A DNA stretch of 64,000 bases from Candidatus Magasanikiibacteriota bacterium (GTDB lineage Bacteria > Patescibacteriota > Patescibacteriia > Magasanikbacterales > UBA922): the NCBI GenBank assembly GCA_052033375.1, contig JBPOJQ010000013.1, forward strand, positions 2,255 through 66,254. The letters run 5' to 3'. Shown one piece after another: positions 22,651 to 64,000 of this stretch. The stretch's first letter is position 1. Each line of letters starts with the position of its first letter. A model generated the notes under the pieces. That model was not told the origin of the DNA. It made no database searches and worked only from the letters and a program-made list of their open reading frames with translations. A program made the translations under genes and the position numbers.

Positions 22651-22732
22651 TGCTCAGGTGGCGAAATTGGTAGACGCACTACCTTGAGGTGGTAGCGCCG
22701 AAAGGCATGGAGGTTCGAGTCCTCTCCTGAGC
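22651..22732 (+). tRNA. tRNA-Leu (anticodon GAG)
   Basis: Acceptor GCTCAGG/CCTGAGC, anticodon stem CTACC/GGTAG with loop TTGAGGT, and a long variable arm. Confidence 0.85.
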
Positions 22733-22789
22733 ACGACCTTGAGAGACCCTGCTAGATGTCCGAGATGGATACTGCAGATGAGCTTAACA

Positions 22790-22818
22790 AAAAACACCCG
22801 AAATTGGGTGTTTTTTGT
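22790..22818 (+). terminator. Rho-independent terminator downstream of tRNA-Leu
   Basis: AAAAACACCC-GAAATT-GGGTGTTTTTTG. It lies inside the 5' end of the track ORF 22756..24336, so the real CDS start is probably downstream. Confidence 0.7.
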
Positions 22819-22869
22819 TTTACTCAAATAAATGATAATATCTATCTACGCACTATCTGTATTCCTCTT

Positions 22870-24336
22870 ATGAATGAAAAAGAAAAAACTATAAATCAAA
22901 AAATTATCATAAGTTCTGGATTAAATAAGTCAGAAAAGTATTTAGCTAAAATCTGCGGTAAAACTTTCTTATCTTTATGGAGTTATCCTAACCTATATCG
23001 CAATAAAGGAAAAGAATTATCGGATTTGCTTGTTGTTTTTGGTAATCATATTCTAATTTTTTCAGATAAATCATGTGCGTACCCAGTAAGTGAAAATCAT
23101 GAACTTAATTGGAGTCGATGGTTTAGAAGAGCTGTTGAAAAATCAGCAAAACAGTTGTGGCGGGCAGAACAATGGATTCGGCAGTACCCAAAGCAGATTT
23201 TTTTAGATCCAGAATGTACGCAACGTTTCCCATTTGATATAGATATACAAAAAACAAAAATCCACTTAATTTTAGTTGCACATGGAGTTTCTGCATCTTG
23301 CAAAAAGTATTTTAATGGTGGAAGTGGTAGTTTAATTATAAAAAACGATATTAAAAGTATTAATGAGCACACAGAGCCATTTGTTATTGGAGATCTCAAT
23401 CCTTCTAAAACTTTTATACACGTACTCGACGACATAACTCTCGATATAGTGATGAACGCACTTGATACCACATCTGATTTGGTTTCCTATTTTTCTAAAA
23501 AAGAAATTCTGCTTCGCTCAGATAAACATATAATGTATACAGGGGAAGAAGACTTACTTCCCTACTATATGACAAAAATTAAAAATGATGAACATGATTT
23601 TGTATTTCCTGAAGAATCAAATGGTATAGCGATTTTCGAAGGTGAATGGAAAAACTTTTGTAATAATCCACAAAGGAAAGCCCAATTAGAAGAAGATAAA
23701 ATAAGTTACTATTGGGATGCACTAATAGAACAATTCAATAAAAATGCTTTAAACGGCACGCAATATAATACTTCAGCAGGGGGTATAAAAGATTCTGAAA
23801 AAATAATGCGTTTCTTTGCAAGTGAAACTCGATTTCGTAGAAGAATTCTTTCAAAAACTGTTCTTGGTTTGATTGAAAAAACACCTAATGATATTTGTGG
23901 CAGAAGATTTAGTGTTCCTCTAACTAAAGATGGAACCTATTATGCTTTTATCACTTTTCCTAAAAAAAATCATCACACGGAACAACAATATCGAGCTTTT
24001 AGAAGCGAGTACTTAAAAATTTGTTGCATGGTTGTTCGCGCAGTATATCCTAATGCTAAAGATATAATTGGATTTGCAACAGAGTCTGGTAAAGAATTAA
24101 AAGGAAGATCAGAAGATGCTCTATATCTTGATGGAAGACATTGGAATGAAGGAATGCAAAAAGAAGCATTAGAGTTACAGAAGAAATTGGGAATTCTTAT
24201 GGAACCTAATTATTACAAAATGAGTGATACTGAATTTCCAGATGTTAATCCAACACAGATTCCTAAAGTTGGAAGAAATGAAAAATGCCCTTGTGGGTCA
24301 AGTAAAAAATATAAAAGATGTCACGGATTTAAATAA
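22870..24336 (+). CDS. Hypothetical protein with a C-terminal SEC-C metal-binding motif, in an AT-rich (about 28% GC) segment
   Basis: The C-terminus NEKCPCGSSKKYKRCHG is a SEC-C motif. I chose the ATG at 22870 (MNEKEK) because the annotated 22756 start would read through the tRNA terminator hairpin. GC content is clearly below neighbouring genes. Confidence 0.65.
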   Translation: MNEKEKTINQKIIISSGLNKSEKYLAKICGKTFLSLWSYPNLYRNKGKELSDLLVVFGNHILIFSDKSCAYPVSENHELNWSRWFRRAVEKSAKQLWRAEQWIRQYPKQIFLDPECTQRFPFDIDIQKTKIHLILVAHGVSASCKKYFNGGSGSLIIKNDIKSINEHTEPFVIGDLNPSKTFIHVLDDITLDIVMNALDTTSDLVSYFSKKEILLRSDKHIMYTGEEDLLPYYMTKIKNDEHDFVFPEESNGIAIFEGEWKNFCNNPQRKAQLEEDKISYYWDALIEQFNKNALNGTQYNTSAGGIKDSEKIMRFFASETRFRRRILSKTVLGLIEKTPNDICGRRFSVPLTKDGTYYAFITFPKKNHHTEQQYRAFRSEYLKICCMVVRAVYPNAKDIIGFATESGKELKGRSEDALYLDGRHWNEGMQKEALELQKKLGILMEPNYYKMSDTEFPDVNPTQIPKVGRNEKCPCGSSKKYKRCHGFK

Positions 24337-24364
24337 ATCTTTATCTTATTGCCAAAAATTTACT

Positions 24365-24787
24365 TTAAATTAAACATAATTTTTTATCTCTTAGTATTAG
24401 CCTATTTTTAACTACTTCTATAAGTTCTCTTTTCTCAAAGATCTTTCCTTCTTTCAAGATATATTTTGCATACTTCTTCATATCTAAATCTTTCTTTTTC
24501 TCTAATTCATCATTTTTTAAACCCAGAACTGCATACCTAAACTGACTATACCGATCTAGTTCTGCTTCTAATTTCTGTTTGATTCCCAGTTTATCTAGAC
24601 TCACCTTACCTATTATTTCTACTAGCTGCTTTATTACTTCGTTCTCATTCATACTCACTCCCCTGCAATTTTGATCCTTTGTTCTCGTGCACACATAGTA
24701 CACGTATCTATGAACATTCCCATTCTGCTGATGCTTGAATTTTTCATCTGCAGTAATACCTGAACCACAATTTCCACATGTCATCAT
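24365..24787 (-). pseudogene. Probable remnant of a large serine recombinase (recombinase zinc-beta-ribbon plus coiled-coil C-terminal region only)
   Basis: CGNCGSGI...YVYYVCTRTKDQNC followed by a K/E-rich helical tail matches the Zn-ribbon and coiled-coil region of large serine recombinases. No resolvase catalytic domain lies upstream. The 5' region is replaced by the 80-bp repeat. Confidence 0.45.
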
Positions 24788-24840
24788 TCTGGTGAACGCG
24801 AATTCTTTGTTCTTTTTCTTTTAGTACACGCTTCGCCTCT

Positions 24841-24919
24841 TTTACATTCAAAACCAAAGACGCTATACTTATTGACAATGCTATAAATTTGTGTAAATAT
24901 AGCGTAAAATCTTAACTTT
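24841..24919 (+). repeat. 80-bp direct repeat copy 1 (promoter plus 5' leader of secreted-protein paralog A)
   Basis: The two copies read tttacattcaaaaccaaagacgctatacttattgacaatgctataaatttgtgtaaatatagcNtaaaatcttaacttt. The only mismatch seen is G (copy 1) versus C (copy 2) at position N. It contains TTGACA and an extended -10-like TGtaaatat. Confidence 0.85.
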
Positions 24920-24920
24920 A

Positions 24921-26525
24921 TTGATTATGAACAGAAACACAAAAATATCTATTACGGCAGCAGTCGCCCTTGTACTCATTATTGGTGTTGGAATTGGATG
25001 CTACATACATAGTAAAAAAACTACTACAGTATCTACAGGACCAACAACCACCAGCACTCCAAATGTTGTGACAGATCCTACTCCAACCGCTAAAACACCA
25101 TATAACATCGGAGAATCCAGAACACTTAGCCCGATCGGCTATTCAGACTTTGATGAGTTTTTGAAAAAAGCTATTCAAAAAAAGACGGTGAAAAATACAC
25201 GCGATAATCTCAATTACACAGCATATCTCTTGAAACAAGAAGATGCAGATTTTCTTGGCTCATCACGTATTATTGTAAAAATTGATCTTGAACGAGATTA
25301 TGCACCACTTCCCTTTTTTGATACACAAATCAATGATGTAGATAGTATTGGTAATTTTCATGTAACCGACAGCGGTCTTGAACTTACGTCAAAAACACAG
25401 ACTTCTGAAGATGAACGCGCATATCTTCTTGAATTTTCACCTATCGTACTTGGAGATAATTATACTCCAGACTCACTGCGTGTAATGCGATTGGTTTCTG
25501 AATCAATCCGAAATAGCTATAAAAAAACTGTTGCTGATTTTTCTGCCGCACTTACGAAAAATGGTATTGCTAACGAATATAAAAATAATACGCTAGTGGG
25601 ATTTGATATTGGCACTATTTACCATATAACTCTTATAGATAATACAAACTATCAAATAAATGTAATGAGTCCTGATTTTAGTATTGGAATTGGCGAAGGA
25701 ATCCCTACATGGTTTACTCCTAATAAGGTAGATTTCACTGCGAGTACTGACATACTACATTCTCAATTTCTTTACCCTACTGACATCTTGTATTCTGATA
25801 AAATAACTATCGAGGGACAGCTGTCTTTTGTAATATTTACTTACTGCGGATATCCAGCATCAAATTATTGCGTACAGATTCGTACAAAAGACAGCCGAAA
25901 CATGGGATATGTAGTGAATATAGACGTTGATGATTCCTATAAAGAAAATCCTGAAATTGCGGTACAGAAAATTATAACCAGCCCATTGGTTAAAAATATA
26001 TTCTCATCAATCAATTCTCAAGAAAGTACTGCCCAGCCTACACGTGAACACGCTAAGAATGTTATTTCTGCACTTAGAAATGCTGATTTCTCACAACTCT
26101 CTACCTACACTCACCCCGAAAAAGGCATCCGTTTCTCACCATACATATATGTGCAGAAGGATTCACATCTGGTGTTTAAAGTAGATAGTATAAAAAATCT
26201 ACTGAATGATACAAAAGTATATACCTGGGGAACTTACGATGGTTCTGGATTCCCTATTGAACTAACCCCTAAAGAATATTATGATCAATTCGTATATTCT
26301 CGTGACTTTGCGAATGTAGCAAAGATTACCTATAATGATATATCCAATTATAATACCCAAAAAATACTTGAAACGTATCCACAGAGTACTATTGTGGAAT
26401 ATTATTATCCTGGCACCGATCCAAAATTCGAGGGCATGGATTGGCAAAGTTTGCGATTGGTATTTGAGGAATTTAATGGTACCTGGTATCTGGTAGGCAT
26501 TGTGCACGACGAATGGATGATCTAG
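24921..26525 (+). CDS. Membrane-anchored secreted protein, paralog A (N-terminal TM, Thr/Pro-rich linker, multi-domain ectodomain)
   Basis: 534 aa. TM segment ISITAAVALVLIIGVGIGCYI, then linker TTTVSTGPTTTSTPNVVTDPTPTAKTP. The central region NVMSPDFSIGIGEGIPTWFTPNKVDFTA is homologous to the 29310 gene. Confidence 0.8.
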   Translation: MIMNRNTKISITAAVALVLIIGVGIGCYIHSKKTTTVSTGPTTTSTPNVVTDPTPTAKTPYNIGESRTLSPIGYSDFDEFLKKAIQKKTVKNTRDNLNYTAYLLKQEDADFLGSSRIIVKIDLERDYAPLPFFDTQINDVDSIGNFHVTDSGLELTSKTQTSEDERAYLLEFSPIVLGDNYTPDSLRVMRLVSESIRNSYKKTVADFSAALTKNGIANEYKNNTLVGFDIGTIYHITLIDNTNYQINVMSPDFSIGIGEGIPTWFTPNKVDFTASTDILHSQFLYPTDILYSDKITIEGQLSFVIFTYCGYPASNYCVQIRTKDSRNMGYVVNIDVDDSYKENPEIAVQKIITSPLVKNIFSSINSQESTAQPTREHAKNVISALRNADFSQLSTYTHPEKGIRFSPYIYVQKDSHLVFKVDSIKNLLNDTKVYTWGTYDGSGFPIELTPKEYYDQFVYSRDFANVAKITYNDISNYNTQKILETYPQSTIVEYYYPGTDPKFEGMDWQSLRLVFEEFNGTWYLVGIVHDEWMI

Positions 26526-26535
26526 TATTTCCTAT

Positions 26536-27144
26536 ATGTCTACCACCCAACTCCATTTCCGTTACTCTCCCATCTACGACCGCTCTCTTGCAGCATTATC
26601 TTCTACAGAACTTTCTGACGATCAGATTTCAGAAGGTTTTTCTTTTGCCAATGATTTTGCTGCGTATTGGCAAGATAAAAACGACAAAATATTTAATTAC
26701 TATAGTGAACTAGGATTAGTGCTTGCAGATTTTTGGTTAGCATACCCGGTTCATGCACAAAAAAATATTGTTCCATTTAATGATCCTCTTACATTCTTCA
26801 TCAAAGATAATTTTGATGAATGTGCAGCAACAATTACTCATGAAATTTGTCACACGTTCTTTAGTTATTTTGCAAACAATGAACGTGCAGTAGAACTCTG
26901 GAAACCAATTGCAGAAAAATTCTCAGATGAACCAAATGACGTACAGGAACATATTTTAATTAATATGCTTGCATCTGGTGGATACTTCAGAATCTTTGAT
27001 AGTAATAAAGCTATTGAATTAATAAAAATGGAAACCGAATATTCTTCACTCGCTCGAAGCTGGAAGCTTATCTATGATGGTATTGGTGGAGATTTTGAGA
27101 AGCTTAAAGATCCTTTGGAAGCTCTCAAAATTCTTGCTACGTAA
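26536..27144 (+). CDS. Hypothetical protein with an HExxH motif (putative zinc metallopeptidase-like)
   Basis: 202 aa. ITHEICHTFF contains HExxH and is followed by an acidic helical region. Confidence 0.6.
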   Translation: MSTTQLHFRYSPIYDRSLAALSSTELSDDQISEGFSFANDFAAYWQDKNDKIFNYYSELGLVLADFWLAYPVHAQKNIVPFNDPLTFFIKDNFDECAATITHEICHTFFSYFANNERAVELWKPIAEKFSDEPNDVQEHILINMLASGGYFRIFDSNKAIELIKMETEYSSLARSWKLIYDGIGGDFEKLKDPLEALKILAT

Positions 27145-27148
27145 GACG

Positions 27149-27829
27149 TTAAATAGTTTTTCTCTTAAATTCAAAGACATAAAACATAAAAGACTTATTG
27201 TGGGCTGGTCTTTTATATACTTCTACAATTTCAAATCCATTATTTTCTGCCAAATGGAAAGGTAGGTAAATACTCAGATCAGCAAAATTTGCCCAACCGA
27301 AATAGATTCGACCACCAGGATTTAAGTATCTAGCTGCCTGGTTAAAAAACTTTTGTTTCATTAGATTATTTGGGTCCCAAAACATTTTATCGATAGCGTC
27401 CTTTGCACCATGATTGTTGTATGGTGGATTGCAGATAATAGCATCAAAGGTACCGGTAACATTTTCAAAAACATCAGACTGTAAAAACTGAATATTACTT
27501 ATTCCATTTTTCTCTGCATTCAATTTGCTGTTTTCTACCGCGCGTTCATTGATATCCACCCCTACCCCAGATTTTGCATACTGAGCAAGGTATAAACATA
27601 TTGTTCCAGTACCACATCCTATTTCTAAGAATGTTTGTCCTGGTTCCAGACATACCGATTGAGCCATAAGTTCGGTATCAACAGACGTTCTGTATACTCC
27701 ACTAAGCACTTGAATTGGAAGACCACAACACTCAATATCTAGTGGTTGCCCTGTTGTGTGTCTTTCTTGAAGTCTCTCTGTTTGAGACGGGACAGCTGGA
27801 ATATTGCTTTGCTCTAGAGTGAATTTCAT
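27149..27829 (-). CDS. Class I SAM-dependent methyltransferase with an NPPY motif (HemK/PrmC or TrmN6/methyltransferase-small-domain type)
   Basis: Motif I LEIGCGTGTICLYLAQ, acidic DIN, and NPPY (AIICNPPYNN) are present. Confidence 0.7.
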   Translation of the reverse strand: MKFTLEQSNIPAVPSQTERLQERHTTGQPLDIECCGLPIQVLSGVYRTSVDTELMAQSVCLEPGQTFLEIGCGTGTICLYLAQYAKSGVGVDINERAVENSKLNAEKNGISNIQFLQSDVFENVTGTFDAIICNPPYNNHGAKDAIDKMFWDPNNLMKQKFFNQAARYLNPGGRIYFGWANFADLSIYLPFHLAENNGFEIVEVYKRPAHNKSFMFYVFEFKRKTI

Positions 27830-27844
27830 AATTCAAAATAGTAT

Positions 27845-28078
27845 CTAAGACTTTCTCTTGAAAAAAAGGTTCTCAAGCTGCTCAAGTTCCTTTATTGGTT
27901 TTTCTTCAAAGAAACAGACGAATGATTCTTTGAGTGTTTCGTTTTCTAATACTATCTGGAATTTACCTTCATGACTAAAAATGCAATCAATTGGGAAAAA
28001 GTGATGATGCCACGGGATTCCGTTGATAGAATATGATTGGACGAGACGAATTATTTCTTCAAATTGAACAATCTTCAT
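27845..28078 (-). CDS. Small hypothetical protein
   Basis: 77 aa ORF, AT-rich, and co-directional with the neighbouring small gene. Confidence 0.4.
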   Translation of the reverse strand: MKIVQFEEIIRLVQSYSINGIPWHHHFFPIDCIFSHEGKFQIVLENETLKESFVCFFEEKPIKELEQLENLFFKRKS

Positions 28079-28087
28079 ATATTATAT

Positions 28088-28474
28088 CTATTTATTTTCC
28101 ATCACTTGTTTTAAATTTTCTAATATAGCTTGTGTAAATGGATTTTGTAACTCCCCAGTCTTTACCCATTCGTAATATTCTAATTCAGTCTGTGTATCTC
28201 CTATCACTGTATACGAATATCTAACATGATAATTCTCCGCCATATCTGAAAGAGTAAATACATCATATAGTTCATATTCTATTACTTTATAGGTATTCCA
28301 TTCAGTATCAGTGCCAGAATTTTTATACTGCGTACCAATATGCGGAGGATATTCCTCAGCAATTTCTTTTTGAATAGATGGAATCCATAAATGGGTATTC
28401 TCGGGATTGGTGGTAAATTCAAATACAACTGGGGCAGGCTTATCTATAATAATAGTTAGTTTATTTTCTTTCAT
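28088..28474 (-). CDS. Hypothetical protein (possibly SRPBCC/START-like fold)
   Basis: 128 aa. Alternating beta-strand-like hydrophobic patterns are visible. No definitive motif was found. Confidence 0.45.
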   Translation of the reverse strand: MKENKLTIIIDKPAPVVFEFTTNPENTHLWIPSIQKEIAEEYPPHIGTQYKNSGTDTEWNTYKVIEYELYDVFTLSDMAENYHVRYSYTVIGDTQTELEYYEWVKTGELQNPFTQAILENLKQVMENK

Positions 28475-28554
28475 AGATTGAAATCAGTATATCCCATAAA
28501 AAGCACGACCGTCCACAGATGTTCTGGGACGGTCGGCGAATGCGAGCGTAGTGC

Positions 28555-29034
28555 TCAGTAGCCTTTGGAAGGCGGGATGACCTCGTCTCCGACTCGGATG
28601 AGTCCGCACTGGAACACTTCGGCAACGAGACCGCCGCGATCGTAGAAGGCTTCCTTGAACCCCGGCTTGCCCGAGAGGTTGCTCGGACGATCACAAGGAT
28701 CGCAGTACTTCACGCCGAGGAACTTGGCGTCGTCAATCGAGAAGTACTTTCCGATGAGCCACATGAGCTCGACACCTTCGACGACGATGTTCCGTCGGCT
28801 ATCGACGTAGTCAAAGCCCGTCCCTGGGAAGAAGACCCCGTTGATGAACGTGACCTGTCGACGACCTTGGTTACCCTTGTTAAAGCTACCTTCACCCGTG
28901 CAGTAACGATCTCCTTCGAGACCCATACCTTCGAGCGCTCGGACTTCGTTGACCAGCTGCATGGGACCTCCAGCAGCCGGTGAGATGCAGATCGCTATGA
29001 CCTTGCCATTCGCCATACCCTGACTCCTTTTCAT
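28555..29034 (-). CDS. MOSC-domain protein (MoCo sulfurase C-terminal-like), in a high-GC patch
   Basis: 159 aa with conserved Cys and GDRY-type motifs (GLEGDRYCTGEG). Local GC is about 58% against about 39% in the flanks. Confidence 0.55.
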   Translation of the reverse strand: MKRSQGMANGKVIAICISPAAGGPMQLVNEVRALEGMGLEGDRYCTGEGSFNKGNQGRRQVTFINGVFFPGTGFDYVDSRRNIVVEGVELMWLIGKYFSIDDAKFLGVKYCDPCDRPSNLSGKPGFKEAFYDRGGLVAEVFQCGLIRVGDEVIPPSKGY

Positions 29035-29202
29035 GGGTTTGTGCCTATACTACCAGATATTTGAATAAGTTCAATAAGTGTCTTATTTACCACGGAAACA
29101 TGCTCCCCTGACCGAGAGGGTTTCCCCCATCCTTTCAAAAAGACCTTGAAAGAGCCCATGGTTGGCTGTAGATGTGATTATTTGGGCCGTGGTGGTGCAC
29201 AG

Positions 29203-30603: not shown

Positions 30604-30739
30604 ATTGCCTTATTCTACACGAGATCAAAAAATTATGAAAACAAAAACAACCCAGTATCTGAGTTGTTTTTGATGGAACCGCGTTTGCACTCGACTCCAC
30701 CAGGCACACCGCGGTTGAATGTACCCGTTGTCTCAGATG

Positions 30740-31399
30740 TCAGGTTCGGCGACGAAAGATGAATAGACTGTCGACCACACCTCTCTTGGTCGGCAGGCTG
30801 GGCAGATGTGCGTTGCCTCTCGTTCTCACCGCGATCAGCGCCCGATAGGCTTCGAACACCGACTTGTACTGAGTGATGCCAGCTCTCGACAGGAGTAACT
30901 TCAAGAAACTGTACGACTTCGTCTGCTTCAGTTGCTCATCATTCTCCACGGTCTCCCATGCGAGCTGGAGATCAGACGTGTCGACGGTTGCACCACCACC
31001 CATGCCGTCCGAATCGACTCTCGCGACTTCCTCAAAATCTGAATCGTTGTGGAGCCTGGTAGCCACCTCCCACCAGTTGTTGCACACCACGAACCCCGGA
31101 GTGTTGAGGCAGTCGAGTGGACGAGAAGGCAGTGGTGAATTCCTGGCGAAAATCACGTCAGCGAGTTCGGGAAGGGTGAAGTTTTCGACATCTGACTCGT
31201 ACGCTTCATACCCTCGCTCCACCATATTCGACACCACTTTCGGATCAATGTCGAGATAGATGACACGTGCATCAGGGAACATATGCGTCGGCGCATCGTC
31301 ATCGCCACATCCGGGATAGTAGACGACCCGGACCGTGACGCTGATCGACGCGAAGTACGCCTGAATTGCCTTGACCTGGTTACTGTAATTGTCTTGCAT
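30740..31399 (-). CDS. Hypothetical cytoplasmic protein in a high-GC patch with a strong SD
   Basis: A GGAGG sits 7 nt upstream of the ATG at 31399 (MQDNYSNQ...). GC is well above the flanks. The track ORF start at 31447 lies upstream of the SD. Confidence 0.6.
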   Translation of the reverse strand: MQDNYSNQVKAIQAYFASISVTVRVVYYPGCGDDDAPTHMFPDARVIYLDIDPKVVSNMVERGYEAYESDVENFTLPELADVIFARNSPLPSRPLDCLNTPGFVVCNNWWEVATRLHNDSDFEEVARVDSDGMGGGATVDTSDLQLAWETVENDEQLKQTKSYSFLKLLLSRAGITQYKSVFEAYRALIAVRTRGNAHLPSLPTKRGVVDSLFIFRRRT

Positions 31400-31496
31400 G
31401 TTTTTTCCTCCGAAAGGGAAGGTACAGAAAAAAGAGATGCTCGTCAATGGCGTACGCCCACATGATATAGTTTTGATTTAAGTCAACGTTATGGAT

Positions 31497-34883: not shown

Positions 34884-35131
34884 GAAATTTTTGTAATTAT
34901 GTACTATATTTTAGCTTAAATTACTAAACATCGCAATTTATTGGGTTACCCACGACAGTCTCTCATTTCCCATAGAAACATACCCCCGACCGAGAGACGC
35001 CCACTCAGAAAACAGGCGATACGACTATTGAAAAAAACACCGTACTGTAGTACATTTCTCAATGTAGAGGTCAGTCTAGGAACAACTCTCCTGACCTACC
35101 AATTCACACACCTCAGAGGAGGTAACGCAAC

Positions 35132-35824
35132 ATGACGCGACGTGTTTTCCGCCTGTTCATTCTCATGGTATCACTCTTCTCCATGAGTGACTGCACGACT
35201 GACCGTCCAGGTCCCCAACCCGTGATCGTGAGCAATGCTTCGATCACGAAGATCAGCGAGCTCATCCAGGCTCGATGCTCCACGGGCGCCGACATCGTCA
35301 CACAGTCACTCAGAAACATCAATCTTCCGCAAGGACCTGATACATACGAAGTGTTCGCAAGTCACGAATTCACCAACTGCAAGAAAGGCAGGAAAGTCCG
35401 ATTCACGTCCCTCATCTACGAAATGCGCGCGGAACGTGTATTTCCCAATGGAAAGACCGTGCCCCTGGATCTCGTACAGAGCGACCAGATCATTCGGGTG
35501 AAGAAAATCATGAGCAATGACTTCAGCACAGGAATCGACATCACGCCGCAGCTGATGGATAGCCGAGCACACATCACTATCCGCGTGACGCCACACCCAC
35601 GTTCACCTGGAACAACAGTGGGTATTCCAATGGATCGCGACACCTGGACATTCAGTCTGCTCGGACGATTCAACCGCGAACAGTGCCAAACACCCTGTGC
35701 AGATATCTATGCCACCCGACTCACGTCTATCCAGGCAGTCGATGAGAATGGAAAGAATCTGCTATTCACGCCGATCGATGACACTGCGTTCACTCTGCAT
35801 ATTGCGGGTGACTACCGCAACTGA
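35132..35824 (+). CDS. Putative lipoprotein in a high-GC patch
   Basis: Signal peptide MTRRVFRLFILMVSLFSMSDC ends in Cys. A GGAGG SD sits 7 nt upstream. GC is about 55%. A terminator lies about 70 nt downstream. Confidence 0.65.
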   Translation: MTRRVFRLFILMVSLFSMSDCTTDRPGPQPVIVSNASITKISELIQARCSTGADIVTQSLRNINLPQGPDTYEVFASHEFTNCKKGRKVRFTSLIYEMRAERVFPNGKTVPLDLVQSDQIIRVKKIMSNDFSTGIDITPQLMDSRAHITIRVTPHPRSPGTTVGIPMDRDTWTFSLLGRFNREQCQTPCADIYATRLTSIQAVDENGKNLLFTPIDDTAFTLHIAGDYRN

Positions 35825-35889
35825 GGTTTCGAGCTCTTCTGTGGACTCACACCCACCGAGAGCTCGTACCTATTATATTCATAAACACC

Positions 35890-35915
35890 ACTCAAAAAAT
35901 GAGGGTGTTTTTGTT
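35890..35915 (+). terminator. Hairpin ACACCACTCA-A6-TGAGGGTGTTTTT
   Basis: An imperfect stem with a T-run. It shares the ACACC/GGTGT stem core with three other terminators in the window. Confidence 0.55.
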
Positions 35916-35923
35916 ATACTTAT

Positions 35924-36676: not shown

Positions 36677-37302
36677 GAAGAATACCCATTGTTCTTCATT
36701 AGTAAGTATCTCATACTCTTATGCTCCTACAAAAAAATCCGTACCATTTCTGGTACAGATTTTTTTGTTTCATACTACTCCTATAAGCCGAATTTTGTAT
36801 CCCGACATAGTCGGGACGACGATCATTTCTCTAGTCTTACTGTTGCCAGTAAAATCATGAACGAGCTAACTTTTCGAATCCCAAATTGCTTTGGAAAACG
36901 CTGCTCTTTCTTCAGGTAGGGTTTGCCATCAATCTGTCTCGCGACAGAGGAAGTATCGTAGTATTGATACAGATGCATATGCGGACCGATCAATACACCA
37001 ATACACTTTTCACCTTTCATCGCATAGCGATTAGTATAGTCTCTGTGGCACTTTCCCGTCAGAACATTTTGCAATGCCTGAGGTGGGTGTTACCCACTAC
37101 CTTTTTTCTTATCTACTTGGTAGACAAGAGAAGTTCGGACTTTCCTCCCTTCTTCGCTCTTCACTGTGTTCAAGCTTCATACAGACCAGTACTCTCGTAT
37201 TCACAAACATATACGGTGTGTCTGGTGTGGCTCTAAACGTAATGAAGAACGAAGTCAGGCGATCATCCAGAGTAATACGAAACAGTGAGAGAATACCATA
37301 AA

Positions 37303-58226: not shown

Positions 58227-59213
58227 TTATTTCTTCCCTGCAATTACCGCCATCTCCACTAATCGATTCGCATACCCCCATTCATTATCATACCACCCAA
58301 TTACCTTGACCAAATTCCCATCGACTACACGAGTAAGTTCAGCGTCCACAATCGCAGAATATGCATTGCCAATATAATCACTTGAAACTAAAGGTTCATG
58401 TGATACATCAAGAATTCCTTTCAAATAGGATTTTGAAGCTTTGATGTAGGCTTTGTTTATTTCTTCAACAGTTGTTGATTTTTTTAATAATACAGTGATA
58501 TCAGTAAGTGACACACTAATTGTCGGGACGCGAACTGAAAGACCGTCAAACTTTCCTCCAAGTTGTGGAATAGTTCGGGTCACCGCAATAGCAGCACCTG
58601 TTTTGGTAGGAACCATGTTTTGTGCAGCTGCACGAGCCTCACGCAAATCTTTTGAAGGTCCATCCTGGAGTACCTGAGAGGCGGTATATGAATGCACTGT
58701 GGTGAGCATTGCTTTTTCTATTCCAAATTCTTTTTCCAAGACCAGCATCATAGGTGCTGCACAATTGGTAGTACACGATGCATTGTCGAGAATCGCTTCA
58801 CCTGCGTACTCTTTGTCATTTACCCCACGGACATAGGTTTTCAATTCACCTTTTCCTGGCGCTGAAATGATTACTTTTTTTGCTCCTGCAGTAATATGTG
58901 CTTTTGCACTTTCCGCGTCAGTAAATCGTCCAGTTGATTCGATTACCACATCTACTTTGAGTTGTTTCCATGGCAATACCGTAGGATCTTTTTCCGCAAA
59001 TACTGGAATTTTCTTACCTTTTACAATAATATGTTTCTCATCAAAAGAAACCGGATATTCAAAATCATTGTATGCAGTATCATGTTTTAATAAATGAGCC
59101 AATGTCCTCGTATCAGTCAAATCATTGATACCTACAATATCTAGCTTTTTTTGAAATGCTATTTTGAATGCGTGTCGACCGATACGACCAAATCCATTGA
59201 TGGCAATTTTCAT
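58227..59213 (-). CDS. gap: Glyceraldehyde-3-phosphate dehydrogenase, type I
   Basis: NGFGRIGR is present. The active-site motif SCTTNC is present. Confidence 0.93.
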   Translation of the reverse strand: MKIAINGFGRIGRHAFKIAFQKKLDIVGINDLTDTRTLAHLLKHDTAYNDFEYPVSFDEKHIIVKGKKIPVFAEKDPTVLPWKQLKVDVVIESTGRFTDAESAKAHITAGAKKVIISAPGKGELKTYVRGVNDKEYAGEAILDNASCTTNCAAPMMLVLEKEFGIEKAMLTTVHSYTASQVLQDGPSKDLREARAAAQNMVPTKTGAAIAVTRTIPQLGGKFDGLSVRVPTISVSLTDITVLLKKSTTVEEINKAYIKASKSYLKGILDVSHEPLVSSDYIGNAYSAIVDAELTRVVDGNLVKVIGWYDNEWGYANRLVEMAVIAGKK

Positions 59214-59326
59214 ATTTTTGAAATAAATCTAATAGAATACAGATTACTAAGATTTCCGTGAAAATCTATGATTACATCCTAGGCAATCTGGGTAATCATG
59301 GCAATCTGTGTGCCATTATACCATAC

Positions 59327-59836
59327 TTATCTGGATACTTCCTCCATTTTTCTTGAAGCCGCACAGGTCAAGGCGATCGCCAGTGCATCAGCAGCATCGT
59401 CGGGAGTAATTTTTTTCTTTATTCCCAATAAAACTTTTACCATCATCTCAAGCTGAGTTTTGTCAGCCCTCCCGTATCCAGTGATACTTTGCTTTACTTC
59501 AAGCGGTGTATACTCGTGGACAGCAAGATGGGCTTTGGTAAGAGTCAATAGAATGACACCCCGCGCTTGCCCTACTTTGAGCGCAGTTGTGACGTTTTTA
59601 TAAAAAAATAATTCCTCGACTGCAGCACAATTGGGCTGATGTGTACGTATTATTTTTATCAACTCATCGGAAATATCCACCAATCGTTCAACGAACGTTC
59701 GTTTTGTATCCGTCTCAATACAACCATAGTCGACCACTCGAAACCGATCACCCGCAACGTCAATAATACCAAAACCTACTCGTCCAAAGCCTGGATCAAT
59801 GCCGAGAATGCGGATAGATTTTTGATGATGTTTCAT
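59327..59836 (-). CDS. ruvC: Crossover junction endodeoxyribonuclease RuvC
   Basis: ILGIDPGFGRVGFGI contains a catalytic Asp. Length 169 aa. Confidence 0.9.
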   Translation of the reverse strand: MKHHQKSIRILGIDPGFGRVGFGIIDVAGDRFRVVDYGCIETDTKRTFVERLVDISDELIKIIRTHQPNCAAVEELFFYKNVTTALKVGQARGVILLTLTKAHLAVHEYTPLEVKQSITGYGRADKTQLEMMVKVLLGIKKKITPDDAADALAIALTCAASRKMEEVSR

Positions 59837-59994
59837 AGGCTAACTCTAGTTTATCATGCTTCCCAAAATAAAGGCAGATTATTGACAAACATGATGAAAC
59901 TGGCTACATTGTACCGGGCTCTGGCTATGCAACCATCTCTTGGTTACACTGTCGGACACGCGTATATCTTACACCCAGCCAAAAGGATTCATCA

Positions 59995-60384
59995 ATGTGT
60001 ATCAGATGTGAGACACATGCTACTTACCTCGTTCGTTCCAAGCTCGCACATACCATCCTGCAATCGATGATGGCATCCTCCAACCCCTCTACTAACCCCG
60101 TCCTGATTCTGGGTGTCAGTATTCGGGCGATCCGCAATGCTCAAGTCACCTTCATCTGCATTCGGGATTCCTCTAGTCTGAGCGAGAACGGCACGCTGGA
60201 CAGCGACCGCTGGTCGGTCGTGCAAACTGGGACAAGAATTCTCGGAAGCAGTGAACGAGACAACCTGTGCGTCGAACGCCTCCGAAGGGCTGCAGAAGAA
60301 ATGTTCGGAGCAGGCCTCCGCATCTTCGCGGTCGATAATGACGAACCTGATCACAGCTGGCGAGTCGAGATACGTCAATTCTGA
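59995..60384 (+). CDS. Candidate small protein on the opposite strand, inside the GC-rich insert between ruvC and yebC. It has its own promoter-like and terminator-like elements. Function unknown.
   Basis: An AAGGA SD sits 9 nt before the ATG. A TTGACA-17-TACATT promoter-like element lies at 59881..59909. A hairpin terminator lies at 60438..60469. High GC yields ORFs in several frames, so the coding assignment is tentative. Confidence 0.3.
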   Translation: MCIRCETHATYLVRSKLAHTILQSMMASSNPSTNPVLILGVSIRAIRNAQVTFICIRDSSSLSENGTLDSDRWSVVQTGTRILGSSERDNLCVERLRRAAEEMFGAGLRIFAVDNDEPDHSWRVEIRQF

Positions 60385-60612
60385 CTCCAGCCGCCGTCGC
60401 AATGATACCTATACGGCCATCGCGACGGCACTACACAAAAACAGCCCTCTGAATAGAGAGCTGTTTTTGTGTAATCCTGCTAGGTCGTGCCATTCTGAGC
60501 GACCCCGAGCGTAGTCGAGGGGGAGTCGAAGGGAAGGATCCCCTGCACTATACAAGTCTTATTTTAAACAAGGGATTCCTCGACCCACCTGTAGGACTCG
60601 ATCGGAATGACA

Positions 60613-61344
60613 CTATCGAGCAGTCGTATATACCTCTTTGACATCATCAAGTTCATACAACGCTTCAACCAAAGCACCCAATACTTCTGATTGTTCGGGA
60701 GACAGCTCCATTGTTTCCTTTGCCATCCACTCAAGGCTCGCACTATCGGGACTAATCCCTGCCGTGTGAAGTACTTCTGACATTGCTTGAAATTTTTCTT
60801 TTGGCCCGACGAGCTCTACCCCATTCTCGCTTTCCCGAATATCATCAACTCCTGCGTCCATAAGCGCAAGTTCTAGCTCTTCCCAGTTTTTTATTTCTAC
60901 CTTTTTTTCAGCGCTAATACGAAGCACTGCTTTGTATTCAAATTGCCACGCAACCGCGCCTTTACTTCCCAATGATCCACCAATTTTGGTAAATGCATTT
61001 TTAATTTCGGTAAGTGCGCGATTGGTATTATCCGTGACTGATTCAATCAGCATTGCAACTCCGCCTGGTCCATATCCTTCATATACCAACTCTTGCAACG
61101 CAATACCATCTTTCAATTCTCCTGTTCCTTTCTTGATTGCTCGATCAATATTATCTTTCGGCATATTCACTTCCTTTGCCTTATCAATTGCGAGACGAAG
61201 TGAAAAATTCATTGCAGGATCCCCACCACCATTCTGTGCTGCAATGGTAATTGCCTTTGAGACTTTGGTAAATGCATGTGCCTTTGCCTTATCTGCTTTT
61301 CCCTTTTTCCCTTGTATATTGTGCCATTTTGAGTGACCGGACAT
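60613..61344 (-). CDS. yebC: YebC/PmpR-family DNA-binding transcriptional regulator
   Basis: The N-terminus is MSGHSKWHNIQGKKGKADKAKAHAFTK. Confidence 0.92.
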   Translation of the reverse strand: MSGHSKWHNIQGKKGKADKAKAHAFTKVSKAITIAAQNGGGDPAMNFSLRLAIDKAKEVNMPKDNIDRAIKKGTGELKDGIALQELVYEGYGPGGVAMLIESVTDNTNRALTEIKNAFTKIGGSLGSKGAVAWQFEYKAVLRISAEKKVEIKNWEELELALMDAGVDDIRESENGVELVGPKEKFQAMSEVLHTAGISPDSASLEWMAKETMELSPEQSEVLGALVEALYELDDVKEVYTTAR

Positions 61345-61467
61345 ATAAATTTATTCAAAAGTATATACACGATAACACGAAAATATAAGCTTTTCAAGCT
61401 TGTTGCCCGATATAATCTATAATGGTATACTCCCGCATATTAACGTACTATATACACATTATTATCT

Positions 61468-61731
61468 ATGGATAAAATAACACTGCTTGGACTTGTAGCT
61501 GCTATTTGTACCACGATCTCATACTTGCCTCAGGCGATAAAAACCATACAGACTAAAGAGGTAAAAAATATATCTCTTATCATGTATTCAATTCTTACTT
61601 TTGGTGTACTGTTATGGCTTATTTACGGCATTTTTATCAAGAATACTCCTGTAATTTTGGCGAATGGAATCACCTTTATTTTTGTTGCGACCACTCTTGT
61701 ATTGGTGATTAAGTACAAAAATAAGTCGTAA
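61468..61731 (+). CDS. SemiSWEET (single MtN3/PQ-loop triple-helix-bundle sugar transporter)
   Basis: 87 aa with three TMs. TTISYLPQAIKTIQTKEVKNISLIMY is the PQ motif. Confidence 0.8.
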   Translation: MDKITLLGLVAAICTTISYLPQAIKTIQTKEVKNISLIMYSILTFGVLLWLIYGIFIKNTPVILANGITFIFVATTLVLVIKYKNKS

Positions 61732-61797: not shown

Positions 61798-62337
61798 ATG
61801 GAAAATCAAAACGCATGGCATTCAGTATCAATTGGAGAAAAATCTCCAGAAGTAGTCAACGCAATTATTGAAATCTCAAAAGGAAGTAAAGGAAAATTTG
61901 AACTCGACAAAGATTCAGGATTAATCAAACTTGATCGTGTTCTCTTCTCAGCAGTACACTACCCTACCAACTACGGATTCATCCCCCAAACTTATTGCGA
62001 TGATGGAGATCCATTGGACATTCTCGTTCTCACGACTGTCGATCTTCCATCTCTTTGTCTCGTAGAGGCGCGTGTAGTCGGTGTTATGGGAATGATTGAT
62101 GGTGGCGAGGGAGACGACAAAATCATCGCGGTTGCAAAGGATGACCCAAACATGAAACATATTAATGAATTGGAAGATCTGCCTCAGCATACACTCGATG
62201 AGATCAAACAGTTCTTCGAAGAATATAAGAAGCTCGAAAAGAAAACAGTCGAAGTAAAAGGATTTGAAGGAAAGAAACGAGCACTTGCGGTAGTAGAAGA
62301 AAGCATTGCACTCTATCAGAAGACATTCAAAAAATAA
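61798..62337 (+). CDS. ppa: Inorganic pyrophosphatase (family I)
   Basis: [10 protein letters not shown] and the KIIAV motif are present. Length 179 aa. Confidence 0.92.
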
Positions 62338-62349
62338 TACCACTCACAC

Positions 62350-62378
62350 AATACCCCCTGGCATCAGGGGGTATTTAT
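62350..62378 (+). terminator. Terminator of ppa
   Basis: ATACCCCCTG-GCAT-CAGGGGGTATTTAT. Confidence 0.75.
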
Positions 62379-62909
62379 ATAGTATCCGCTATAGACGTGA
62401 TTGCACTCCGACGAATATACAAAATAAAAAAAACTGCCAATTCAAAGACAGTTGTATACAGATGTGGCAGCGCCGGCCGTAGGAGTCCTACAGCCGGCGT
62501 CCGTCGCGTCTACCCGGCGACGACGTGCAAGATCAGGGCTACCAGGCCTGCGTACACCGCGAGGCCAAAGACACCCTTCGCACAGGTCTTCACCACCAGA
62601 CGCGCGAAATCGAACTGGTTCAGAAACATCCGCTCCCCCTCTCGTTGGTTGATCACCCAGTCCTCCCAACACAGTTGTTGGGACACAGCACAGTACCACA
62701 AAAAGGGTGTTTTGTCAATAGTTCTACTCACGGAAAAACAATAAAAAACGCTATAATTAGCTAAATTTTACAGACACTACCTATTTTCAAAATAGACAGA
62801 TATTAGAGTGGATCTCCTACTCTCTAGAGAAAAGCTCAGCACAATTCCAAAAGCTGTGCCTGTGCACATGCCGACCTATCTGATGCTGACAGTTTGACTG
62901 ATGAGTAAA

Positions 62910-62940
62910 AAAAGACCCCTACAATAGGGGTCTTTTAACA
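62910..62940 (-). terminator. Terminator of rpoC
   Basis: The minus strand reads AAAAGACCCCTATTGTAGGGGTCTTTTTTT. Confidence 0.75.
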
Positions 62941-62952
62941 CATGTAGCACTA

Positions 62953-64000
62953 CTAGTTCATCGCTTCTGCTTCTACTTCTTCTTTTTCTTGAACCAGTTG
63001 GATAGCTTGATCTACCGTGCCTGTCCCAGCAGGAATAAGGCGTCCGATAATCACATTCTCTTTCAATCCTTCCAAATGATCCATCTTTCCTGTAATTGCT
63101 GCATTTACCAAGACACGGGATGTTTCCTGGAAAGACGCACTAGAGAGGAAGCTCTGGGTGGTAAGTGAAATTTTACTAATACCCATGAGCATATCCCGCC
63201 CTCGAGCAATTTTCTGTTTATGTTTCAGTGCATCAGCATTTGCAATCATGAGCTGTGAACGCTCCACAATTTCTCCCGGAATCAATTCAGTATCACCAGT
63301 ATCTTCGATAAACACACGAGAGAACATCTGTTTGATGATAATTTCAATATGTTTATCATTCAAGCGCTGACCCTGTGAAGCATAGATTTCTTGAATTTCT
63401 TTTAAGATATATCGTTTTACCGCATCCTGACCTTTGAGATCGAATAATTCTTTCAAATCAATTGCTCCTTCAGTCAATTGGTCACCTTTTTCTACCGCAT
63501 CATTATTCTTCACCCACAATTTATATCCTAGCGGTACAATATATTCTTTGGTTGTCTTGCCATCATAAATATAGTGAAGTTTCATGCCATTGATAGACAC
63601 TTTTCCATCAAATTCAGCTTTGATTTCTTCACCTGAAGCTCCACGAATAATGAGTGTGTCACCTGCTGAAACTTTTTGTCCTTCTGCAAATTTTACATCA
63701 TCCTCACCATGAATATCATATACAATCTCATCAATTCCATCATGATGAATTTTGATAATCTTTTGTCCACGGCGACCTTCAAAGATTTTTCGTCCTGTTG
63801 GCCCCATCACCACTTTTCCGTCAGCATCTTCAATTTCAACAGTGCCTGCAACCTCTGAAAGCAATGCTTTTCGTTTTGGCATGCGGGCTTCAAATAATTC
63901 TTCTACCCGAGGAAGACCCTGTGTAATATCTCCACCAGCAACTCCACCAAGGTGGAATGTACGCATGGTGAGCTGTGTACCCGGTTCTCCGATAGACTGT
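62953..64000 (-). CDS. rpoC: DNA-directed RNA polymerase subunit beta-prime, C-terminal portion (gene continues beyond the window end)
   Basis: MRTFHLGGVAGGDITQGLPRVEELFEAR is a conserved rpoC segment. The frame stays open to position 64000. Confidence 0.9.
   Translation of the reverse strand, partial: QSIGEPGTQLTMRTFHLGGVAGGDITQGLPRVEELFEARMPKRKALLSEVAGTVEIEDADGKVVMGPTGRKIFEGRRGQKIIKIHHDGIDEIVYDIHGEDDVKFAEGQKVSAGDTLIIRGASGEEIKAEFDGKVSINGMKLHYIYDGKTTKEYIVPLGYKLWVKNNDAVEKGDQLTEGAIDLKELFDLKGQDAVKRYILKEIQEIYASQGQRLNDKHIEIIIKQMFSRVFIEDTGDTELIPGEIVERSQLMIANADALKHKQKIARGRDMLMGISKISLTTQSFLSSASFQETSRVLVNAAITGKMDHLEGLKENVIIGRLIPAGTGTVDQAIQLVQEKEEVEAEAMN

Follow-up and report, generated by a model that had tools for sequence, protein, structure and literature searches.

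A probable protein-coding accessory unit in the variable yebC-ruvC slot of Magasanikbacteria

Introduction

Orphan accessory genes in variable chromosomal slots are a known phenomenon, and the closest described kind is that of the ORFan islets located between core genes, in which variable content at a fixed site is combined with atypical composition, lack of homologues and a promoter and terminator of their own. The locus described here, a GC-rich block between ruvC and yebC, shares these properties. It lies in a 64,000-nt stretch of contig JBPOJQ010000013.1 from a Candidatus Magasanikiibacteriota bacterium, referred to as the window, whose positions are used throughout. The block differs from ORFan islets in that it would constitute a single gene of less than 0.8 kb without integrase, tRNA or repeat boundary, in that several of the alleles occupying the slot seem to be very distant homologues, and in the persistence of high GC across alleles.

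Other systems resemble the block in part. Phage morons and free-standing homing endonucleases are likewise autonomous units between conserved adjacent genes, patchy in distribution and atypical in composition; the block, however, resides on a chromosome of the candidate phyla radiation (CPR), where the +/-4 kb compared offer no prophage context, and neither HNH, GIY-YIG or LAGLIDADG domains nor PHROG, phage or viral matches were found for its 129-aa open reading frame (ORF). Integron cassettes also have an imperfect GC-rich hairpin directly behind a small single ORF, and differing ORFs at one site, but the block has its own promoter and is a single unit, not an array; integron core sites (GTTRRRY/RYYYAAC) are absent from ~60385-60480, and the window showed no IntI-type integrase. 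Toxin-antitoxin and immunity modules, such as the HicAB pair that occupies this variable slot in a distant relative (L019), are similarly small, fast-evolving and patchy. In contrast to them the block is a single gene without partner ORF, evident antisense RNA, or toxin-antitoxin, PADLOC or Pfam domain, and examined as a type II module it offers one ORF with a Shine-Dalgarno sequence (SD) and no toxin-antitoxin domain.

Results

The gap between ruvC and yebC measures 776 bp (59837-60612), and it probably holds a protein-coding accessory transcription unit lodged in a variable slot. Coding was judged by four properties: an SD with a start codon, codon-position composition, amino-acid conservation on one strand, and a frame kept through divergence. 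The ORF at 59995..60384 (+ strand), an orphan of the ORF list that starts from an ATG as MCIRCE, displays all of them. It is preceded by AAGGA at 59983-59987, 7 nt upstream of the ATG at 59995; the GC content of its three codon positions (GC1 0.55, GC2 0.48, GC3 0.59) follows the coding pattern GC3 > GC1 > GC2; its similarity to the slot ORFs of two related genomes reaches z 8.3; and its homologue is intact in the strain pair L004/L131. The GC3 of host genes is 0.29-0.38, and that of the slot ORF of the related locus L006 is 0.75. The unit is antisense to both neighbours, running on the + strand with ruvC and yebC on the - strand. GC content is 0.51 over the whole block and rises to 0.525-0.575 in 200-nt windows between 60000 and 60499, compared with 0.41 for the 64-kb window, in which only seven stretches reach 0.52.

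The slot was compared among loci fetched through RuvC, 60 of them species-level and 69 from metagenomes. The window RuvC itself groups, at >=90% identity, with proteins annotated as Candidatus Magasanikbacteria. The closest clade shares 75-93% protein identity in RuvC and 84-92% in YebC, with 75-86% nucleotide identity in flanking genes (75-84% for the flanks of the window, L004 and L006). Within this clade the slot is empty in L002 (56 bp) and in L007 and L008 (67-68 bp), and it is filled in L001, L003, L004, L005 and L006 by inserts of 424-655 bp, GC-rich in L001, L004, L005 and L006. Except for short modules beside yebC, these inserts cannot be aligned in DNA with the window block or with one another. 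The L004-type insert was recovered in identical or near-identical form from independent samples (L062, L131-L135). More widely, the gap is of at most 100 nt in 23 of the 44 species with yebC upstream of ruvC, of 101-300 nt in 10 and of more than 300 nt in 11, and the slot of distant relatives contains HicB and HicA in L019 (HicA 9e-19, HicB 1.5e-6) or a GH5 cellulase in L028. Slot content and gap sizes across relatives therefore describe a recurrent landing place for accessory genes between two genes that are normally adjacent. The block is a strain-specific accessory insertion, and the yebC-ruvC slot turns over repeatedly in this lineage.

A slot of 809 bp (1015-1823) with 44% GC in a locus of 32% GC was also seen in L020, a more distant Magasanikbacteria genome. 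Its translations repeat LAKGG-like motifs, suggesting tandem repeats or repeats of the repetitive extragenic palindromic (REP) kind.

The slot ORFs of the window, L004 and L006 all begin with MCxxC and have 120-130 codons; that of L004 encodes 120 aa from the Met after AGGAG, as JGI and ENA call it (P0148), and that of L006 130 aa. The three proteins are collinear along their whole length at ~20% identity, with M1, C2, C5, R14, L22, I54, C92, A99, A112 and W122 invariant. Pairwise similarity was judged against 2000 shuffles by local and semi-global scores. The window and L004 proteins gave z 7.0 and 8.3, respectively, with 0 of 2000 shuffles as good, the window and L006 3.8 and 5.9, and L004 and L006 2.3 and 3.3, whereas controls with opposite-strand ORFs and with the unrelated slot ORFs of L001 and L005 remained between -1.2 and 1.3. 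Identity by codon position was 0.35-0.48 at positions 1 and 2 and 0.25-0.38 at position 3. To judge from these alignments, the MCxxC proteins constitute a new, tiny and very fast-evolving family, seen so far only in the yebC-ruvC slot. The ORFs that fill the slot in L001, L003 and L005 are unrelated and encode a 73-aa product with CxxC...HHxxC, a hydrophobic peptide of 53 aa and a product of 99 aa.

The pace of this divergence can be followed in the strains L004 and L131, which are 98.9% identical in nucleotides over 6.5 kb. Over its 363 nt their ORF differs by 13 substitutions, which change 6 codons synonymously and 6 non-synonymously, with no stops or frameshifts; the five flanking genes have 0.2-1.2% changes, the ORF diverging about six times faster, and promoter and leader (165 nt) have none. 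The only indels, of 5 nt and 3 nt, lie just past the stop codon and in the hairpin loop; both stems are preserved and one terminator mismatch is repaired. An earlier interpretation of the window made from its letters alone (hereafter the sequence-only reading) had held that relatives with the same block and a broken ORF would speak against a gene; what the pair presents is a homologue intact through its substitutions, with indels confined to the outside.

The anatomy of the block is that of an autonomous transcription unit. A sigma-70-type promoter-like site, TTGACA-17-TACATT (59882..59910, + strand), points from ruvC into the block; with 10/12 matches in the promoter scan it is the top one of ten such sites in 59200-61500, where 4.9 +/- 2.1 are expected. 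The 5' leader, as read from the sequence, would comprise ~78 nt (59917..59994, + strand); no shared leader structure was obtained for the window, L004 and L006, whose poor alignment of three sequences gave -10 kcal/mol with a covariation term of ~0. Downstream, a GC-rich hairpin GCCGTCGC...GCGACGGC (60393..60429, + strand; arms also given as GCCGTCGCAATG...CATCGCGACGGC) begins 8 nt past the stop codon, and it is followed by an intrinsic terminator, ACACAAAAACAGCCCTCT-gaat-AGAGAGCTGTTTTTGTGT (60432..60473), the arms of which (60432-60450 and 60455-60473) are 19 nt long and 95% complementary. Because its A-run pairs with its T-run within the stem, the terminator should be bidirectional, on both strands, and is predicted to serve the small gene and the convergent yebC; a strict terminator scan made no call at 60432-60473 because of one internal mismatch. 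The whole 3' part, 60380-60612, folds at z -5.2 against shuffles, an excess of structure accounted for entirely by the two terminal hairpins and the palindrome described below. The features that the sequence-only reading had listed, namely a GC-rich block between ruvC and yebC, TTGACA-17-TACATT, a 129-aa ORF behind AAGGA, a hairpin terminator and further stable hairpins, are thus all present, the promoter one base away from where it had been placed, and the normal adjacency of yebC and ruvC that it had stated agrees with the gap sizes given above.

The same layout of promoter, SD, ATG, GC hairpin and terminator is common to all six inserts. Each has TTGA(C/T)(A/T)-17-TAnnnT at an equivalent position, 15-56 nt from the ruvC start. 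The five related inserts have 56-101 nt from the -10 element to the ATG and an SD in each, a GC hairpin between stop codon and terminator (L004, L006, L001, L003, L005), and a terminator hairpin of the form CAAAAA(C/G)AGC...GCT(G/C)TTTTTG. Read from yebC, the order is an optional palindrome (window and L005 only), terminator, GC hairpin, antisense ORF and promoter. GC hairpin and terminator form a 3' module that in L001 (3383-3460), L003 (3625-3700) and L005 (3505-3585; all approximate) is 85-92% identical, against 81-84% for the coding flanks, and includes an invariant 37-mer, AGACCCTACATCTCGCGGTCCCATTCAAAAGCAGCTT. Since only the 3' arm of its hairpin is conserved, the constraint on this module looks sequence-based rather than structural.

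Several results weigh against a functional protein-coding gene. A word-indexed search of 5.8e9 clustered proteins, with the single sequence or a 3-sequence profile, returned only the 129-aa ORF itself and the L004 ORF, and an exhaustive phmmer search of 1.84e9 representative proteins the query alone. There were no families in Pfam, NCBIfam, PHROGs or PADLOC, the best E value of a PDB profile search was 0.15, and nothing was obtained with tblastn in phages, blastn in plasmids or back-translated patterns in viral contigs. The homology check that the sequence-only reading had proposed thus yielded, in these libraries, no family and no homologue beyond the L004 slot ORF. The AlphaFold2 (AF2) model of the window protein is unusable (pLDDT 42), and Foldseek gave no match to PDB or BFVD at E <= 0.001. 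The similarity to L004 and L006 amounts to no more than ~20% and is based on three sequences; the codon-position test is partly circular, because the alignment was built on protein, and between the window and L006 position 1 identity (0.35) falls under that of position 3 (0.38). Counts in the strain pair are small, and a dN/dS of ~0.3 is indistinguishable from weak or relaxed constraint. Finally, the insert of the window itself is known from one contig.

The AF2 model of the L004 homologue reached pLDDT 65 and pTM 0.58. Both models share an order of elements, helix, strand(s), helix and two strands, the first strand part being one strand in the window and two in L004. Foldseek matches to DUF600/EsaG immunity proteins were insignificant (probability ~0.1). 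The 129-aa product is probably a small cytoplasmic alpha/beta protein, in which the N-terminal CxxC (Cys2 and Cys5) and one further invariant cysteine (Cys92) may, from their conservation, form a metal or redox site.

Among the alternatives to a protein-coding unit, the one that survives best regards the block as inert, decaying foreign DNA in which the ORF is non-functional and the promoter- and SD-like sites are fortuitous. An orphan ORF with a low-confidence model, a slot that takes in varied DNA and a very fast divergence with dN/dS near relaxed values would all suit it. Decay, however, is difficult to reconcile with the retention of a 120-130-codon frame by three species with flanks so far diverged, a stop-free run of 129 codons being expected in ~0.6% of random stretches at block GC (our own estimate from base composition). 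Nor does it explain why the indels between strains fall outside the ORF only, why promoter and leader are invariant while the ORF changes, or why each of the six inserts again has a promoter, an SD and a terminator. We regard inert DNA as an unlikely explanation of the block.

The second possibility that the sequence-only reading had raised, a structured non-coding RNA (ncRNA) with the ORF as an incidental by-product of the few stops in GC-rich DNA, fares considerably worse. A GC-rich block in an AT-rich CPR genome is typical of structured RNAs, promoter and terminator of its own would fit such a transcript, the last 233 nt do fold strongly, and long ORFs are present on both strands. Yet leader and ORF together (59915-60384) fold like dinucleotide shuffles (z +0.19), and relatives' inserts have no nucleotide similarity to one another while sharing in-frame amino-acid similarity on one strand, with SD and ATG equally placed in every insert. 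The Rfam search that had been suggested found no family in the block at the gathering score over the whole window, and at E <= 10 over 59700-60750 only hairpin-shaped chance matches on the terminator (such as mir-9457, which scored 25.5 bits where the gathering score is 90), so that no RNA family explains the block at either threshold. An ncRNA is, on this evidence, very improbable; the SD with its ATG, the coding GC pattern of the codon positions and the one-strand similarity to the slot ORFs of two related genomes argue for the small gene, the other option the sequence-only reading had offered.

The opposite strand carries an ORF of its own (59992-60402, - strand, 136 aa from a TTG), slightly longer and on the operon strand of yebC and ruvC. 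That this would be the real gene is barely credible: its TTG lies within the GC hairpin and has no SD, its codon-position GC (0.60/0.48/0.55) mirrors that of the + strand gene, the corresponding frames of relatives give z -1.0 to 0.2 with no long ORF in L004, and the bidirectional terminator separates it from yebC. A chimeric join of DNA from a higher-GC organism into the metagenome contig, which the sharp GC shift and the single contig with the window's insert might suggest, can be dismissed almost entirely, given inserts with the same layout at the exact site in five related genomes from independent assemblies, one of them recovered from six or more independent samples, and given junctions in host-like AT-rich promoter and terminator sequence with intact flanking genes.

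For the block, neither a recombinase nor a target duplication or repeated boundary came to light. A 22-nt direct repeat (59946-59967 and 60610-60631, 77%) was considered as a target duplication and rejected, because ~0.3 such pairs are expected by chance per 900 nt by our own estimate. The term cassette, used in the sequence-only reading, is consequently stronger than these results allow.

Between the terminator and yebC lies a palindromic element of ~125 nt (60488..60612, both strands), not set apart in the sequence-only reading, which abuts the yebC stop codon and so occupies the 3' untranslated region of that gene. Its ends are TGTCATTCCGATCGAG and GCTCAGAATGGCA, its inner arms contain GTCGAGGAATCCCTTG, and the palindrome is also given as TGTCATTCCGAGCG. 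As in miniature inverted-repeat transposable elements (MITEs) it has terminal inverted repeats, GCCATTCTGAGCGA at 60489-60502 pairing with GTCATTCCGATCGA at 60598-60611 (- strand). L005 alone has a similar near-perfect palindrome, of 113 nt, at the equivalent position, with 71% identity and the inner arms in common. Beyond these single copies there is no further one in the 845 kb of window and loci, and a target-site duplication is not evident at its ends, so that neither the dispersed copies nor the duplication of a MITE were seen. No exact-pattern match was obtained in viral contigs; 76 viral-contig matches to a 16-mer of the palindrome were discarded as chance, the context of the element being absent from them. 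The sequence was not found in the literature. The element therefore resembles MITE- and REP-like repeats in its length (~115-125 nt), terminal inverted repeats, long inner palindrome and intergenic position beside a stop codon, and differs from them in being single-copy in 64 kb, without evident target-site duplication and without an associated transposase.

The flanking core genes lie outside the insert: ruvC at 59327..59836 (- strand; Pfam RuvC 5.6e-52) and yebC at 60613..61344 (- strand; Pfam TACO1/YebC 3e-44 and 8.5e-31), in a neighbourhood of glycolysis genes, ruvC, yebC, ppa and rpoC. Because the insert cuts ruvC off from yebC, a separate promoter is proposed for ruvC, which probably uses the putative extended -10 element TGATAAACT read at 59848..59856 (- strand); TGn-TAnnnT elements 10-25 nt upstream of ruvC are also present in L004, L006, L007 and L008.

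The block is one of several GC-rich islands in the window. A similar architecture, in which a TTGACA-type promoter and a long leader precede an SD-ORF that is followed by a GC hairpin and an A/T-flanked terminator, occurs at 62400-62720, 30640-31450 and 34940-35920 and in the rpoC-ppa interval of L007. Of five GC-hairpin plus terminator modules identified in the window, three paired by hairpin scan (7153-7247, island B and island C) and two by eye (60393-60473 and 62470), four lie in GC-rich islands. The 3' module is represented by AGACCCTACATCTCGCGGTCCCATTCAAAAGCAGCTT and by the GCGACRRC-N-CAAAAASAGC type. These observations could be read as GC-rich, self-contained mini-cassettes exchanged among Magasanikbacteria at defined intergenic sites, with the tandem 3' hairpin module as a recombination or mobilisation handle, a speculative reading to which we give little credence. 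It would also suit the 3' module that L001, L003 and L005 share beside unrelated ORFs, and a GC3 that is high (0.53-0.75) in all alleles, as though they had come repeatedly from an outside pool. A likeness of the island-B module to that of L001, L003 and L005 was kept as a weak lead only, two evidently unrelated matches having been found; it is discounted because chance alone would yield ~1.8 matches to the 16-nt pattern (<=2 mismatches) over the DNA searched.

The insert at 62400-62720 (- strand; 0.55-0.60 GC) is the second of its kind in the window and lies between ppa and rpoC. It shows the same layout, with TTGACA-17-TACTGT, the SD GAGGGGGAG, a 39-codon hydrophobic ORF MFLNQFDFARLVVKTCAKGVFGLAVYAGLVALILHVVAG, a GC hairpin (62470-62500) and a weak terminator. 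A permissive scan of 62250-63000 gave no Rfam match for it, and L001-L006 lack it, their rpoC-ppa gaps measuring 68-107 bp. L007, in which the yebC-ruvC site is empty, has a 775-bp insert of 56% GC between rpoC and ppa (1557-2331), in which a TTGACA-type promoter and an SD-ORF are accompanied by the GC hairpin GGGGGCTG...CAGCCCCC and a terminator.

Islands B and C (30640-31450 and 34940-35920; GC3 0.66 and 0.61) each contain an orphan gene, of 219 aa in B and of 230 aa in C, where the N-terminus resembles a signal peptide. Both genes come with an SD of their own and a 3' GC hairpin with terminator, and both lack Pfam, PHROG and PADLOC matches and form singleton clusters in the protein collection. 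Island A (28461-29060; GC 0.56, GC3 0.68) encodes a 159-aa MOSC-domain protein with hundreds of relatives at 60-92% identity, the few source names listed being Patescibacteria or "bacterium". It had been considered as a sign of a foreign gene pool and was rejected as such, since this is a common Patescibacteria protein; high GC alone hence marks neither an orphan nor a cassette. Two copies of a 25-nt motif, GAAACAT(G/A)C(T)CCCC(T)GACCGAGAG, lie on the + strand beside islands A and C (29092-29118 and 34972-34996); the remainder of the window and 135 loci contain none, and zero chance matches are expected.

Further features of the window were recorded. An AT-rich gene for an 87-aa PQ-loop/MtN3 (SemiSWEET-like) protein lies between yebC and ppa (61468-61731, + strand); it was not found in L001-L007, where this gap is ~116-135 bp. 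A stretch of 26-39% GC (22652-28000) starts right after tRNA-Leu(GAG) (22652-22734) and encodes a 526-aa protein with a C-terminal SEC-C motif, two proteins without Pfam match, a class-I methyltransferase and, at 24365-24787 (- strand), a 140-aa protein fragment that carries a recombinase zinc-ribbon domain. The stretch has the appearance of a genomic island linked to the tRNA, in which a serine recombinase has decayed. The bacterial class A RNase P RNA (36768-37192, - strand; 115.7 bits) is 425 nt long against a model of 367 positions, and RNase P RNA longer than the consensus is common in CPR.

Discussion

The history of the slot was considered on a neighbour-joining tree from yebC, ruvC and gapdh, in which the insert-free L007 and L008 fall outside, the ingroup has L004 and L005 at its base, and the window and L006 join (L001, (L003, L002)). 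Placed on this tree, the MCxxC family (L004, window, L006) is patchy. Two scenarios fit. The MCxxC gene may be ancestral to the ingroup, evolving at a near-neutral rate, and have been replaced in L001, L003 and L005 and lost in L002; alternatively, slot alleles may be re-imported from an external pool. Both are plausible; the unameliorated GC3 of slot alleles (0.53-0.75) and the 3' module shared by L001, L003 and L005 despite unrelated ORFs point towards re-import. Horizontal acquisition is documented in Patescibacteria (PMC12455944).

A protein-coding unit in the slot would operate as follows. The near-consensus sigma-70 promoter would fire away from ruvC, and its transcript, with a leader of ~78 nt, would be translated from the SD and ATG into a small cytoplasmic protein whose cysteines might bind a metal or take part in redox chemistry. 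The GC hairpin and the putative bidirectional terminator would stabilise or end this transcript, and the terminator would also end the convergent transcript of yebC. As to function, a role in conflict, be it immunity, defence, anti-defence or host interaction, is the likeliest guess, though a tentative one in which we have low confidence; it is drawn from the fast divergence, the patchy distribution, the presence of HicAB in the same slot of L019 and the analogy with hypervariable single-gene slots.

Taken as a whole, the locus represents a well-documented case of ordinary accessory-gene turnover, in which it is the protein family that is new. The MCxxC family was missed by all homology tools and came out as coding by synteny-guided comparison, and it may serve as an example of how an orphan can be validated without expression data. 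Should the mini-cassette interpretation prove true, it would represent a new mode of single-gene exchange between tiny genomes. CPR genomes are small and streamlined; a slot that repeatedly gains and replaces small genes with strong promoters would hence indicate where selection acts on accessory functions in them, functions that in this slot probably concern phage or host interaction.

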